This document shows positions 4,059-10,111 of a stretch of DNA of 61,218 nucleotides, piece after piece. The notes under the pieces were generated by a model. The model saw only the letters and a list, made by a program, of their open reading frames with translations. It did no database searches and was not told where the DNA came from. Numbering within the stretch: position 1 is the first letter of the stretch; each line of letters opens with the position of its first letter. This DNA is from Myxococcota bacterium. GTDB taxonomy: Bacteria; Myxococcota_A; UBA796; UBA2385. Position numbers and translations under genes: made by a program. The DNA is taken from the NCBI GenBank assembly GCA_044344255.1, contig JBIJDH010000032.1, positions 1 to 61,218 on the forward strand. The letters run 5' to 3'.

Positions 4059-6860
4059 TTGGAAACCTCCCCCGCCTCCCAGGCCCCGGCCCGCCCCCTC
4101 TCCACGCCTCGCGACAACGCCCTCCCGTGGACCCGCCGCTTCTGCCCCGAGGGGGTCGATGTCTGGGACACGGTGACCTGGGAGCGCCGTGATGCCTCCA
4201 TCGGTGATGCAGGCGGCGGCGTGGTCTTCGAACAAAAGGGCGTGCTCGTCCCCTCCACCTGGAGCATGACCGCCACCAACGTGGTGGTCTCGAAGTACTT
4301 CCGCGGACACCTCGGCACGCCGGAGCGCGAGACCAGCGTGCGCCAGCTCATCGGGCGGGTGGCCGACACCATCTCCCAGTGGGGCTGGAAGGACGGCTAC
4401 TTCCAGACCGAAGAGGACGCCGCCGCCTTTCGCGACGACCTCGTCTGGCTCTGCCTGCACCAGCACCTCGCCTTCAACAGCCCCGTCTGGTTCAACGTGG
4501 GCGTCGAGGCGGAGCCCCAGTGCTCGGCCTGCTTCATCAACTCCGTCGACGACACCATGGAGAGCATCCTGGGCCTCGCCCGCACCGAGGGGATGCTGTT
4601 CAAGTGGGGATCGGGCACCGGCTCGAACCTCTCTTCCCTCCGCTCGAGCAAGGAGCCCCTCCGCGGCGGCGGCACCGCCAGCGGCCCGGTCTCCTTCATG
4701 CGCGGCTTCGACGCCTTCGCGGGCGTCATCAAGAGCGGCGGCAAGACCCGCCGCGCCGCCAAGATGGTCATCCTCGACGTCGACCACCCCGACATCCGCG
4801 AGTTCGTGCGAAGCAAGGCCGACGAGGAGCGGAAGGCTTGGGCCCTCATCGACGCCGGCTACGACGGCGGCTTTAACGTCCCGGGCGGCGCCTACGACTC
4901 GGTCTACTTCCAGAACGCCAACCACAGCGTGCGGGTCACGGACGCCTTCATGCGGGCGGTCGAGGCGGACGGCGAATGGCACACCCGGGCGGTGACCTCG
5001 GGCGAGGTGCTCGGCACCATGAAGGCTCGAGAGCTGCTCCACGACATGGCTGAGTCCACCTGGATCTGCGGCGATCCCGGCATCCAGTTCGACACGACCA
5101 TCAACGACTGGCACCCTTGCATCAACACCGACCGGATCTACGCCTCGAACCCCTGCTCCGAGTACATGTTCCTCAATGACTCGGCCTGCAATCTGGCCAG
5201 CCTGAACCTGATGCGCTTCCGCGATCCCAACGGGGAGTTCGACGTCCATCGATACCGTGAGGCGGTGCGAGCCAGCATCACGGCTCAGGAGATCCTGATC
5301 GACCGGGCGAGCTACCCGACCCCCACCATCGCCCGCAACTCGCATGACTACCGGCCCCTCGGCCTCGGCTACGCCAACCTCGGCGCCCTGCTGATGGCCC
5401 GCGGCCTCCCCTACGACAGCGATGAGGGCCGCAACTACGCCGCCACCCTCACGAGCATCATGCACGGCGAGGCCTACGCCTGGTCGGCCCGCCTCGCCGC
5501 CACCCGCGGGCCCTTCGCCGGCTACGAGCGCAACCAGAAGCCGATGCTGCGGGTCATCGCCAAGCACCGGGTCGCCGCCCACGGCGTGCCGGCGCCCGGT
5601 GTGCCTCAGGGCCTCGCGATGGCCTCTCGCGACGTGTGGGAGGACTGCACCCGCCTCGGTAAGGAGCACGGCTTCCGCAACGGGCAGGTCACCGTGCTCG
5701 CCCCCACCGGCACCATCGGCTTCATGATGGACTGCGACACCACGGGCATCGAGCCCGACATCGCGCTCATCAAGTACAAGAAGCTGGTCGGCGGCGGCAT
5801 GATCAAGATCGTCAACCAGACGGTCCCCGAGGCCCTGCGACGGCTCGGCTACAGCCCCACGGAGGAGGCCGCGATCGCCGCCTACCTCGAGCACCACGAG
5901 ACCATCGAAGGCGCCCCCTTCGTCAAGCCGGAGCACCTGCCGGTCTTCGACTGCGCCTTCAAGCCCCGAAACGGGAGCCGCACCCTCGCCCCCATGGCCC
6001 ACGTGGCGATGATGGCGGCGGTGCAGCCCTTCCTCTCGGGCGCCATCTCGAAGACCGTCAACGTGCCCCCGACCGCGACGGTCGACGACATCGCCAAGCT
6101 CTACATGGACTCCTGGCGCCTCGGCCTGAAGGCGGTCGCCATCTACCGGGATGGTTGCAAGCGCACCCAGCCGCTCAACGTGGGCAAGGACGCCGACCTC
6201 AAGGCCAAGGCCGCCGAGGCCGCCGTCGTCACCGTGGTGGAGAAGGTCGAGTACCGGCCCATCCGCCGCAAGCTGCCGAACGAGCGGCACGCCCGCACCC
6301 ACAAGTTCTCCATCGCCGGGCACGAGGGCTACATCACCGTCGGCCTCTACGAGGACGGCTCTCCCGGCGAGATCTTCCTGGTGATGGCGAAGGAGGGGTC
6401 CACCATCTCGGGCCTCATGGACGCCTTCGCCACGGCGGTCAGCCTCGCGCTCCAGTACGGCGTGCCGCTCCAGGCCCTGTCCGAGAAGTTCAGCCATATG
6501 CGCTTCGAGCCCTCGGGCTTCACGGGCAACCATGAGATCCCGATCGCCAAGAGCTTGATGGACTACATCTTCCGCTGGCTCGACCTCCGCTTTGGCAGCG
6601 GCGAAGCGCCGGCCGAGCCCGAAGAGGGGGGCCTCGAGGCCCCGGTGCAGCCCATCGTCCAGGAGAGCGCCCCCGCGCTCGCCCCGTCGCCGGTCCGCGC
6701 CGCGAAGGTGGGCGCGCCGAGCGGGGCGCAGAAGCTCGAGCGCACCGTGTTCACCAGCCAGGCCGACGCCCCGCCCTGTCACGCCTGTGGCAGCATCATG
6801 GTGCGGTCGGGCAGCTGCTACAAGTGCTTCAACTGCGGGTGCACGAGCGGCTGCTCGTAG
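4059..6860 (+). CDS. nrdJ: Class II (adenosylcobalamin-dependent) ribonucleotide reductase with C-terminal TSCPD-like and zinc-ribbon domains
   Basis: FNSPVWFN, CSACFI, GGKTRRAAKM, NPCSEY, CNLASLNL, APTGTI, ISKTVN, YRDGCK; terminal CxxC...CxxC. Confidence 0.96.
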   Translation: METSPASQAPARPLSTPRDNALPWTRRFCPEGVDVWDTVTWERRDASIGDAGGGVVFEQKGVLVPSTWSMTATNVVVSKYFRGHLGTPERETSVRQLIGRVADTISQWGWKDGYFQTEEDAAAFRDDLVWLCLHQHLAFNSPVWFNVGVEAEPQCSACFINSVDDTMESILGLARTEGMLFKWGSGTGSNLSSLRSSKEPLRGGGTASGPVSFMRGFDAFAGVIKSGGKTRRAAKMVILDVDHPDIREFVRSKADEERKAWALIDAGYDGGFNVPGGAYDSVYFQNANHSVRVTDAFMRAVEADGEWHTRAVTSGEVLGTMKARELLHDMAESTWICGDPGIQFDTTINDWHPCINTDRIYASNPCSEYMFLNDSACNLASLNLMRFRDPNGEFDVHRYREAVRASITAQEILIDRASYPTPTIARNSHDYRPLGLGYANLGALLMARGLPYDSDEGRNYAATLTSIMHGEAYAWSARLAATRGPFAGYERNQKPMLRVIAKHRVAAHGVPAPGVPQGLAMASRDVWEDCTRLGKEHGFRNGQVTVLAPTGTIGFMMDCDTTGIEPDIALIKYKKLVGGGMIKIVNQTVPEALRRLGYSPTEEAAIAAYLEHHETIEGAPFVKPEHLPVFDCAFKPRNGSRTLAPMAHVAMMAAVQPFLSGAISKTVNVPPTATVDDIAKLYMDSWRLGLKAVAIYRDGCKRTQPLNVGKDADLKAKAAEAAVVTVVEKVEYRPIRRKLPNERHARTHKFSIAGHEGYITVGLYEDGSPGEIFLVMAKEGSTISGLMDAFATAVSLALQYGVPLQALSEKFSHMRFEPSGFTGNHEIPIAKSLMDYIFRWLDLRFGSGEAPAEPEEGGLEAPVQPIVQESAPALAPSPVRAAKVGAPSGAQKLERTVFTSQADAPPCHACGSIMVRSGSCYKCFNCGCTSGCS

Positions 6861-6865
6861 GGAGC

Positions 6866-7681
6866 TCAGCCGCCGACCATCCGGCGCACCCGCTCGGGAT
6901 CGAGCGGGGCGCCGATCTGGCCGCGCTCGTGGAGGTAGGTGCCCACGATCGCGCCCTGGGCCACCGCGCGCACGGCGGCGATGTTGTCCGGGGTGGTGCC
7001 GCTGCCCACCCAGCAGGGGCGGTCGGGGACCACGCCGCGGACCTGCCGCACCCGCTCGAGGTCAGCGGGGGCGCCGGTGCGGGGCCCGGTGACGATGAGG
7101 ATGTCAGCGCCGCCGCGCCAGGCGGTCTCGCGGGCGAGCTCTTCGATGTCGGTCTGCCCCGCGGGGACCCCGTGCTTGACCAGCAGGTCCGCCGCGATGG
7201 CCACGCCGCCCGAGCGCATCCCCGTGGGCGAGGCGACCCCCACCGCCTCGAGCGCGCGGCGGTAGCGGAGGGTCTCATAGGCGGTGCCCTGGATCAGGCC
7301 CTGGTCGGTCCAGGTGGCGCTCACGTGGACGTTGACGCGGATGAACGCGGCCTCAGCCGCGACGGCGGCGCCGAGGGCGGCGAGGGCGTCGTTACGCAGC
7401 ACATTGACCCCGAGCGTGAGCGCGTCCCCGAAGCGCGCCTTCACGGCGGCGGCGAGGGCCGCCATCAGCGCCGGAACATGGGGCTCGACGCCGATCGGGC
7501 GAAAGGGAGCGTCCCCAAAGTTCTCCAAGATCACCGTCCGGATACCGCCCTCCACCAGGGCCTCGGCGTCCCGGAGCGCGCGCTCCCGAACGGCCGCCAA
7601 GCCCGGGCCCGCGACCGGGGCGCCCGGCAGGGCCAGCAAGTGGAGGACACCGACGAGAGAGAAGGGAGCTTCAGCGTTCAT
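6866..7681 (-). CDS. BtpA/SgcQ family TIM-barrel protein
   Basis: GVLHLLALPG, ENFGDAPF, GVNVLRND, TDQGLIQG, VKHG, IVTGPRTG, VGSG motifs. Confidence 0.9.
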   Translation of the reverse strand: MNAEAPFSLVGVLHLLALPGAPVAGPGLAAVRERALRDAEALVEGGIRTVILENFGDAPFRPIGVEPHVPALMAALAAAVKARFGDALTLGVNVLRNDALAALGAAVAAEAAFIRVNVHVSATWTDQGLIQGTAYETLRYRRALEAVGVASPTGMRSGGVAIAADLLVKHGVPAGQTDIEELARETAWRGGADILIVTGPRTGAPADLERVRQVRGVVPDRPCWVGSGTTPDNIAAVRAVAQGAIVGTYLHERGQIGAPLDPERVRRMVGG

Positions 7682-8399
7682 GGGCCCCGGGGGTATCCCC
7701 GAAGAGGGGGAGCTGCACGACACCCACTGGCTCCGCCCAGCCGCGCCAGGGGCCCGTGATCACCGTGCCCGCCTTCACCGGCGCGGGCTCATCGAGCGAG
7801 ATGCAGAGGGCGCCCGGGGGGGCGAGCTCAGCGAGGCGGGCCGCGGTGGCGAGGTCGGGCCCGGCGCCGATCGAGACCTCGACGCCGAAGCTGTCGAGGC
7901 CAGTGGCGGCGCGGAGGCAGAGGGAGTCGAGCTCCGGGCCGCTCATCTCGCCGCCGACAAAGCGGGTGACCGCGTCTTCGGGGCCACCGCGTCGCCCCAT
8001 GTTGCCGCTCGGGTGGAGGCGCACGACCACCACGCGCGGGCCGGTGGCGCCGGTGGCCCGCTCGAGATCTCTCTCGACGCAGCGGATGTGGCCGACCGGC
8101 CGCCACCGTTGGGGCGAGGCCGGCACCGCTCCCGGCTCGGCGACGAGGCCCTGCGGGCTCAACCGACCGATCATCGGCCGCCCGAGGCCCTGCGGGCTCA
8201 GCAACAGGTAGTCGCCCTCTCCCCCCTCGGAGAGGCGAAGACGGTCTCCCGGGCGAAGGACCTGACCGCCGATCTCCCCCCACTTCACCACCATCACACT
8301 GCCATCCCGCTGCAATTGGAGGGCGGGGACAGCGAGGGTGCGACCGCCACGAGCTGACGGGAGGGCGGCGGCGGTCGGGTTCGGGAGGGGGGAAAACAT
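7671..8399 (-). CDS. Hypothetical protein with a near-C-terminal QLPLF motif
   Basis: GGAG upstream of ATG 8399; stop overlaps the start of the BtpA-family gene; no recognised family. Confidence 0.7.
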   Translation of the reverse strand: MFSPLPNPTAAALPSARGGRTLAVPALQLQRDGSVMVVKWGEIGGQVLRPGDRLRLSEGGEGDYLLLSPQGLGRPMIGRLSPQGLVAEPGAVPASPQRWRPVGHIRCVERDLERATGATGPRVVVVRLHPSGNMGRRGGPEDAVTRFVGGEMSGPELDSLCLRAATGLDSFGVEVSIGAGPDLATAARLAELAPPGALCISLDEPAPVKAGTVITGPWRGWAEPVGVVQLPLFGDTPGAHER

Positions 8400-8507
8400 G
8401 TTCAACTCCGTTCGCTACTTCTCCCTTTCTAATGGTGCCCCGGCGCATGAGTAGGACATTTTTCGTCCACCCCAAAAAAACTCCACCGGGCCCTCACCGG
8501 GAGGAAT

Positions 8508-8640
8508 GGGGAGCGGGGCCCTGGGGTCAACGGTACACGCGACGCGAGGGGGCGGTCCTCCGGTGGCCTCGTTGCTCGAAAGAGCGTTGACCGCCCTCTT
8601 GCGTCGCCGCCTCTTCACTCTTCCAGGGCCCCGACTCCCC
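8508..8640 (+). ncRNA. Candidate structured RNA: rod with central bubble (6S-like architecture or cis-regulatory leader)
   Basis: Outer stem 8508-8526/8621-8640, 12/13-nt bubble, 19-bp inner stem 8539-8557/8589-8607, apical GCTC-GAAA-GAGC; four G-U wobbles pair only on the + strand. Confidence 0.55.
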
Positions 8641-8755
8641 CACACTGCCCGCCTCCGCCCCCTGCCAAGCGGCGGGGGAGGCCTGAACAAGCAGAGGGGT
8701 CGCCTCGGACCGGCGGCGGTGAGGCTCGCGTGCTAGGCGACGCGCTGGAGGCTCG

Positions 8756-10111
8756 GTGCCGCCTGTCCTCGCCGAACAGACCCTCGCCCAGGCGCTCCCC
8801 GCCGTCGCCATGCTGCCCTTCGTGGGCCTGCTGGCCTCGATCGCGGTCCTGCCCTTGGTGGCCGGGCACTGGTGGGAGCGCCGCCGAAACCAGGCCCTGG
8901 TCGTGATGGGCTGGTCGGCGCCGGTCGTGGTGCAGCTGATCGGCCTCTGGCTCACCGACGCCGTGGTCGGCCCCGAGGCCGGCGCGAGCCTCCTGCGCGC
9001 CGCGCACGAGTACCTCTCCTTCGTCGTGCTGCTGGGCGCGCTGTACGTGATCTCCGGAGGGGTCCTGGTGGCCGGGAACCTCCAGGCCCGTCCGAGCGTC
9101 AACACCGCCTTCCTGGCGGTGGGGGCCCTGCTGGCCAACGTCGTCGGCACCACGGGCGCCAGCATGCTGCTGATCCACCCCCTTCTCCGCGCGAACCGGG
9201 AGCGGGAGCTCGTGGGTCACATCCCGATCTTCTTCATCTTCATCGTGGCGAACATCGGCGGCGCCCTCAGCCCGATCGGCGATCCACCGCTCTTCGTGGG
9301 CTACCTCCGCGGCGTGCCCTTCTCCTGGCCCCTCATCCACCTGGGCCCGGCCTGGCTGCTCGCCGTCTCGCTGCTGCTCTCCGCCTTCTACCTGATCGAC
9401 CGGCACTTCTACGCCCGCGAGCGCGTGGCTGACCTCGCCCTCGACGCGGCTCGGGCCTCCCCCCTGCGGATCGAGGGACAGCTCAACATCCTGCTGCTGA
9501 TCGGGGTCATGGGGGCGGTGCTGTGGCTCTCCCCGGACCCCGAGCGTTCGGACCTCCGGCGATACCCGCTGCGAGAGCTCAGCCTCATCGGGCTCAGCCT
9601 CCTGTCACTGCGCCTCAGCCCTCCCCACATCCGCCCCGCCAACGGCTTCAGCTGGGGGCCGATCCGCGAGGTGGCGCTCCTCTTCGCGGGCATCTTCAGC
9701 ACCATGGTGCCCGCGCTCATCCGCCTCGAAGCCGCGGCCGACACCCTGGGTCCGCCCAGCCCCCTACAGCTCTTCTGGGTGACCGGTCTGCTCTCGTCCT
9801 TCCTCGACAACGCGCCGGCCTACATGACCTTCTCGACGGTCGCCTGCGGGTCCGTGAGCGACTGCACGGGCCCGGAGGCCCTAGGCAGCCTCGCCGGGAG
9901 CCCCGTGGGAGCGGAGCTGCTGAAGGCGATCGCGCTCGGCGCGGTCTTCATGGGGGCCAACACCTACATCGGCAACGGCCCGAACTTCATGGTGCGGGCG
10001 ATCGCCCTCGAGAACGGCTACCGGATGCCCTCCTTCTTCGGGTACATCGGCTGGTCGATGACCTTCCTCCTCCCGTTGTACCTGCTCATCTCCTTGGTGT
10101 TCTTCTGGTGA
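8756..10111 (+). CDS. Sodium:proton antiporter-like membrane protein (ArsB/NhaD ion transporter superfamily)
   Basis: About 12 hydrophobic segments; GTTGASMLLI, NIGGALSPIGDPPL, SSFLDNAP, TYIGNGPNFMV motifs. Confidence 0.88.
   Translation: MPPVLAEQTLAQALPAVAMLPFVGLLASIAVLPLVAGHWWERRRNQALVVMGWSAPVVVQLIGLWLTDAVVGPEAGASLLRAAHEYLSFVVLLGALYVISGGVLVAGNLQARPSVNTAFLAVGALLANVVGTTGASMLLIHPLLRANRERELVGHIPIFFIFIVANIGGALSPIGDPPLFVGYLRGVPFSWPLIHLGPAWLLAVSLLLSAFYLIDRHFYARERVADLALDAARASPLRIEGQLNILLLIGVMGAVLWLSPDPERSDLRRYPLRELSLIGLSLLSLRLSPPHIRPANGFSWGPIREVALLFAGIFSTMVPALIRLEAAADTLGPPSPLQLFWVTGLLSSFLDNAPAYMTFSTVACGSVSDCTGPEALGSLAGSPVGAELLKAIALGAVFMGANTYIGNGPNFMVRAIALENGYRMPSFFGYIGWSMTFLLPLYLLISLVFFW

Follow-up and report, generated by a model that had tools for sequence, protein, structure and literature searches.

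6S RNAs are described as about 200 nt long with a closing stem; a truncated, short-armed form of the B. subtilis 6S-1 RNA still works in vitro, and two 6S RNAs occur in some bacteria (PMC8876501). Cation riboswitches are described as preceding transporter genes, and the platform of the Na+ riboswitch (DUF1646) as a U-run terminator overlapping the aptamer (PMC9337991). Among small RNAs of stress regulons, FoxI of Fusobacterium nucleatum, an 87-nt sigma-E-dependent RNA, is reported to repress at a Shine-Dalgarno site independently of Hfq, and MicA, RybB, VrrA and MicV are named alongside it (PMC9546586). Only a few small RNAs have been described from Myxococcota, a phylum that lacks Hfq. In Myxococcus xanthus, Pxr is described as having three stem-loops, a predicted sigma-54 promoter and a conserved loop in which its function resides, and as Hfq-independent, in keeping with the reported lack of Hfq in myxobacteria (PMC5684412).

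The element analyzed here occupies positions 8508-8640 (+) of a 61,218-nt stretch of DNA from a Myxococcota genome (G000; GC content 71%), the whole of that stretch being called the window, and lies between a divergent gene (gene X) and a CitMHS_2-family transporter gene (Table 1). Each of the described systems is resembled in part. The G000 sequence alone folds as stem-bubble-stem, as does 6S RNA (RF00013), but the closing stem is not conserved, the element is shorter, the 6S model does not match it, and a canonical 6S RNA is encoded elsewhere in the genome. As with the Na+ (DUF1646) and Li+ (nhaA-I/II) riboswitches, a structured RNA precedes an ion-transporter-type gene (PMC9337991, PMC9646797); here, however, there is no Rfam match, no U-tract terminator overlapping the structure, and a promoter-like motif stands between RNA and gene. 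With Pxr, as described, the element would share the character of a myxobacterial small RNA with a conserved loop and without Hfq (PMC5684412), but Pxr has its three stem-loops and predicted sigma-54 promoter, whereas the locus matches no Rfam family (E<=10) beyond chance. Compared with the published description of FoxI, the RNA is predicted to be similar in size, promoter class and anti-Shine-Dalgarno word (PMC9546586), but a 19-bp stem would carry the loop that holds its seed, and there is no U-tract terminator; the likeness would be one of function, and no sequence relationship is claimed. By sequence comparison, the inner ~70 bases look like an uncatalogued small regulatory RNA, and the element is a new RNA family, of a kind that is probably known, carried by five species of one uncultured family.

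Table 1. Features of the RNA locus and its flanks in G000 (window coordinates).
Feature	Position	Strand	Remarks
Divergent gene X, 242 aa	7671-8399	-	neighbor conserved in 19/22 family genomes
Palindromic operator-like site GGACA-N5-(T/C)GTCC	8454-8468	.	upstream of gene X; conserved with or without the RNA
Predicted ECF-sigma -35 box GGAAT	8503-8507	+	G(G/T)AAT in 6/6 loci
5' arm of outer stem	8508-8526	+	coincides with predicted 18-nt promoter spacer; sequence unconserved (identity 0.29); pairing significant in G000 alone
Predicted ECF-sigma -10 box GTCAAC	8526-8531	+	in 5/5 species, invariant GGGT and last C at a constant distance from P1
RNA core: P1 (8539-8557 x 8589-8607), which encloses the loop and the small side hairpin	8539-8607	+	94.7% of cells paired
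Near-invariant loop CCUCCGGUGGCCUCG, partly unpaired, starting with CCUCC	8557-8571	+	predicted seed or protein-binding site
Side hairpin GCUC-GAAA-GAGC	8574-8585	+	79% of cells paired; most homologues keep the hairpin, not the loop sequence
Pyrimidine-rich single-stranded tail, predicted 3' end region	8608-8622	+	in all homologues; sequence differs
3' arm of outer stem	8621-8640	+	inverted repeat particular to G000
Downstream GC-rich hairpin	8651-8682	+	no U tract; conservation in homologues not seen
Extended -10-like motif (GTGCTAGGCG) of transporter gene	8730-8739	+	downstream of the RNA; G000 copy lacks the final T
CitMHS_2-family (PF16980) transporter	8756-10111	+	E 5.5e-147

A sequence-only reading had described the feature as a 133-nt rod, and its structural statements hold when checked pair by pair. 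The outer stem (8508-8526 x 8621-8640) has 19 pairs, 17 Watson-Crick and 2 G-U, with a single bulged A at 8634; the bubble sets 8527-8538 (12 nt) opposite 8608-8620 (13 nt); the inner stem, P1, has 19 pairs, two of them G-U, which brings the wobbles to the four that were reported; and both the GAAA hairpin and another hairpin at about 8651-8682 are present. What does not stand is the apical role given to the GAAA hairpin, which is a side branch, the most conserved part being the overlooked loop beside it (8557-8571). The rod has a minimum free energy of -86.8 kcal/mol (z -5.92; 0/200 shuffles equally stable), and its minus strand folds well too (-81.9 kcal/mol, z -5.18), so that the G000 sequence alone prefers the plus strand just modestly. 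G000 carries a single copy, with one DNA match and one covariance-model match genome-wide, which rules out the dispersed REP/MITE repeat that had been raised as a refuting possibility; the 14-nt loop word recurs exactly only once more, in apparent coding sequence and without the stem. Flank-to-flank outer pairing reaches z -4.0 in G000 and lies between -0.4 and +1.2 in the five other homologous loci, being significant in one of the six; the outer stem is thus particular to G000, and so is the bubble.

P1, by comparison, is maintained across the six homologous loci, which represent five genomes and one further locus (L037). Two-sided changes occur at 11 of its 19 pairs, and its covariation score of 0.56 stands against 0.11-0.18 for slid controls and was reached in 0/500 shuffles. 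Because the sequences were aligned by fitting to the model and represent five independent species (L037 being close to G003), the covariation is best taken as strong, without a formal probability. The nine G-U cells in P1 outnumber the six unpaired cells of every kind, which favors the plus strand. Selection at the RNA level, previously argued from the wobbles of one genome, is accordingly borne out by the homologues, through P1 covariation and G-U cells, and the covariation proposed as a check separates the two stems, P1 covarying strongly and the outer stem not being conserved. The loop has the consensus CCUC(C/A)GGUGGCC, with a mean pairwise identity of 0.97 over 12 nt in the five species; in predicted folds it is partly unpaired, and in G019 and G012 largely paired. 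Its first five bases, CCUCC, form an anti-Shine-Dalgarno word. No conserved small open reading frame was seen on inspection by eye. The structure of the P1-loop element is, as judged from the aligned sequences, well supported.

The distribution of the RNA is narrow, at five species of one uncultured family. Gene X is present in 19 of 22 genomes of this family, and the hairpin was seen upstream of it in G000, G003, G006 and G019 and is absent from the other 15, three of which are shortened by contig ends. A covariance model built on three sequences added G012 and recovered G006, and a metagenome scan, whose pattern gave one locus and was too strict for some homologues, added L037. The final tally is five of the 22 family genomes, that is, G000 and four other species, spanning four genera besides that of G000, or three with the two g13 genomes merged. 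In G019, contig C68 carries the gene X-RNA-transporter locus a second time (L026/L044); its numerous small indels and a stop suggest a duplicate assembly rich in errors, and this copy was excluded from all counts. At the order level, one weak match without the loop was found among 129 genomes outside the family, and at the phylum level the covariance model had no match in 150 genomes; because these searches score filtered candidates only, absence means not found in the genomes searched. An exact pattern run over 185,579 species returned eight loci, three of them known homologues and five without the stem. Weak model matches at L043, L045, L046 and L047 were rejected, having no convincing loop, stem or promoter, and those at L115-L117 had E values of 0.55-0.77. 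Trees of gene X and of the transporter are compatible with one origin without establishing it (p-AU 0.23 and 0.079).

At gathering scores, Rfam finds 5S rRNA alone in the whole window, and permissive thresholds give only chance matches at the locus (E<=10) and at the five homologous loci (E<=5). The Rfam comparison that had been proposed, with 6S RNA and the riboswitches in view, has thus been made and returns no family at the locus, which agrees with the earlier suggestion of an undescribed structured element. No description of the RNA was found among the articles that literature searches listed. RNA contigs from three runs of one freshwater sample contain pieces of gene X at a depth of ~2-3 and nothing over 8451-9847, a low depth that is uninformative on a short RNA.

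Directly upstream of P1, the motif G(G/T)AAT-N17/18-GT(C/T)nnC is found in all six homologous loci and ends 7 nt before the stem. In an ungapped alignment anchored at the start of P1, the invariant positions are -15 to -12 (GGGT) and -8 (C). Identity across species is 0.97 in the loop, 0.75 in the -10 region and 0.29 in the spacer. Such a motif with an unconserved spacer is, at the level of sequence, the pattern of a two-box DNA promoter. The pair of boxes is absent after the operator-like site in 15/15 loci without the RNA (three shortened by contig ends). The motif matches published ECF-sigma boxes, which include the sigma-H promoter GGAAT-N18-19-GTT of C. glutamicum and the GGAAC and GTC boxes of E. 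coli sigma-E (PMC10012870), and a related GTAA-n16-CGT is given for DdvS of M. xanthus (PMC6061681). An ECF-sigma promoter directly upstream of the RNA is likely on these comparisons, with a predicted start at A8537 or G8539, both of which are purines in all five species. The outer 5' arm of the rod would then be promoter spacer and is predicted to fall outside the transcript.

Genome-wide, motifs of this kind before predicted G000 genes number 24 at a spacer of 17, whereas the other spacings average 6.9 (Poisson p 3e-7); spacers of 16 and 18, with 14 and 12, are weakly enriched, the RNA's own G000 spacer, 18, only marginally (p 0.05). G000 has 25 sigma-70-family region-2 matches, and within 250 nt of these 25 sigma genes no convincing autoregulatory copy of the motif was found, with one loose match, and no cognate sigma factor emerged. 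A copy upstream of lolA was discarded as not conserved (absent in 13/13 relatives). Sites of the form GGAACC-N16-GTC(A/T)G also lie upstream of G000 genes, many of them with signal-peptide-like N-termini, and suggest a sigma-E-like regulon.

The explanation that we favor, and to which we give about even credence, is that 8539-8607 with the pyrimidine tail form an ~85-nt stand-alone, ECF-sigma-driven small RNA that would repress translation through ribosome-binding sites. Upon activation of the ECF sigma factor, the RNA would be transcribed from A8537 or G8539, at the foot of P1; with a start at this place, the long GC-rich stem would protect both ends and present the loop. The CCUCC-bearing loop may then pair with ribosome-binding sites, leading to repression of translation. 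Such an RNA would act in trans and independently of Hfq, which was not found in G000 (95% complete), as a non-coding arm of an ECF stress response, and the outer stem would be a G000-specific inverted repeat whose 5' arm lies outside the transcript. Since no Rfam family matches and a promoter, a start and a seed are all predicted, the element offers a testable candidate for such an arm in Myxococcota.

Potential targets were sought in 6,093 predicted start regions, the whole-genome scan covering G000 only. The duplexes have a mean energy of -16.5 kcal/mol (sd 3.6), and the best, at -36.3 kcal/mol, involves a helicase gene; this candidate was rejected as unconserved, its orthologous sites giving -11.4 in G006, -11.7 in G012 and -20.3 kcal/mol in G019. 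The start of gene X, with good pairing in G019 (-23.5) but not elsewhere (-12.8 to -14.4), and the transporter start, whose pairing energy is ordinary, were likewise rejected. No conserved target emerged from the G000 scan together with the comparison of three candidate genes across species. Exact loop complements in G000 are no commoner than those of a reversed control, and wobble-tolerant intergenic sites number 44 against 55 in the control; within 20 nt of a predicted start there are 7 such sites against 2, as expected of any word ending in a Shine-Dalgarno sequence.

The alternative that survives best, possible though unlikely, makes the hairpin the 5' end of a second ECF-driven transporter transcript, where it would serve as a stabilizing or regulatory cis leader (a protein site or a new riboswitch). 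Every homologue lies upstream of the transporter gene on the same strand wherever the contig reaches that gene, a fixed position for which synteny alone also accounts. No U-tract terminator is found in 8300-8850 of G000, and none lies between hairpin and transporter, so read-through into the transporter gene is possible and the 3' end predicted for the small RNA has no such terminator behind it, and a place before a transporter gene is known for cation riboswitches, as described in PMC9337991. Against a leader, 9/16 loci have the extended -10-like motif no more than 70 nt from the transporter start, some start calls being approximate, and it stands downstream of P1 in 4/5 RNA-bearing loci that include this start, while the same transporter gene occurs without the RNA in 11 loci. 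Pairing between the loop and the transporter start does not stand out (mean -17.4; genome mean -16.5, sd 3.6), and the 19-bp stem would sit at the extreme 5' end with no evident switch. Of the cis-regulatory RNA that the sequence-only reading had offered, the position is retained; with no Rfam riboswitch match, no U-tract terminator of the riboswitch kind and a promoter-like motif between in 4/5 loci, the case for a riboswitch of the transporter is left weak.

Because conserved or enriched target sites were not found, a protein-binding role remains a serious rival to repression by base pairing. Here the invariant loop of the ECF-driven small RNA would be a protein-binding site, and the RNA might, for instance, act as a decoy that captures a sigma factor or an RNA-binding regulator; we hold this to be rather improbable. 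Its appeal is that twelve loop bases are near-invariant without a conserved mRNA complement, in a genome in which Hfq was not found. Against it, no partner came to light, the seeds of base-pairing RNAs are invariant too, and the target scans were genome-wide for G000 alone.

We judge it very unlikely that sigma-54 recognizes the upstream motif as a promoter, or that the feature as a whole is a structure at the DNA level or the remnant of a mobile element. A GG-N10-GC spacing does occur in four of the five species, but AC replaces the GC in G000, the GG is followed by TCAA, TTGA or TCTG rather than by CACG, which prevails at sites of this type in G000 (42 against 1-3), and the start would fall within P1, whose basal pairs covary. 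As to a DNA-level origin, the almost equally good folding of the minus strand and the patchy presence in 5/22 genomes point toward it, but the G-U pairs and the single copy speak against a DNA repeat.

A canonical 6S RNA is encoded in G000 on contig C4 (23407-23587, -; locus L001, 54.8 bits), and canonical 6S was also found above the cut-off in G003 and G006 and just below it in G019 (3/5 genomes searched). In the 3-kb locus around the G000 6S gene, no zapA-like or ygfA-like open reading frame is evident. SRP RNA (RF00169) has a single match, on contig C83, and none at the RNA locus. The minimal 6S-like RNA first proposed for the locus, a second 6S mimicking an open promoter with the full 133-nt rod, is highly implausible: a rod with a 12/13-nt bubble and an outer duplex at z -4.0 does exist in G000, and a functional truncated 6S-1 and bacteria with two 6S RNAs have been described (PMC8876501), but the outer pairing is at chance level in 5/5 other loci, RF00013 has no match at the locus at E<=10 while canonical 6S lies elsewhere, the length of 133 nt (~85 nt conserved) falls short of ~200 nt, and no sigma-70 promoter was found upstream of 8508. 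The case illustrates how a conserved small RNA and its promoter spacer can together pass for a convincing 6S-like rod in a single genome. It might be speculated, as a long shot, that the RNA, transcribed with an ECF sigma factor, binds a sigma factor or RNA polymerase with the invariant loop on its 19-bp rod and so feeds back on its own stress regulon, in the manner of 6S but as a decoy of an alternative sigma factor, and that the extra inverted repeat of G000 can fold a longer form with the promoter's -10 box in the open bubble.

The neighborhood of the RNA presents features of its own. Gene X has no Pfam, NCBIfam or PDB sequence match, and Foldseek gave nothing at E<=0.001, with Atlas matches at or below 0.80. 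In its AlphaFold model (pLDDT 80.6), residues 119-205 align with the palm folds of polymerases and cyclases, at a best Z of 7.1 and an rmsd of 3.4 with 83 aligned, values within background, and weak Atlas leads point to IMS (Y-family polymerase) clusters (0.80). Its C-terminal QLPLF/QLGLF resembles a sliding-clamp motif, and its N-terminal beta domain resembles LexA/S24 by eye. Gene X is a candidate for a new DNA-damage protein. The palindrome of its operator-like site, GGACA-N5-TGTCC with one mismatch allowed, also precedes G000 genes at C36:416508, C51:55267, C59:280028 and C83:124371, whose N-termini read by eye as recA, sbcD, gyrA/parC and recN, among 30 sites listed. The palindrome is not found upstream of lexA, so a LexA-independent DNA-damage regulon is possible, and the palindrome may mark one; no relevant paper on it was listed by a literature search. 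GTTCAG, similar to one half of the LexA box of M. xanthus, is found in the promoter region of lexA (L118, 1360-1380) and, in L009, L010, L011, L013, L014 and L015, directly ahead of the gene X ribosome site. On the far side of gene X, the window encodes a class II (B12-dependent) ribonucleotide reductase with a TSCPD domain (4059-6860) and a BtpA-family gene (6866-7723) that overlaps the end of gene X.
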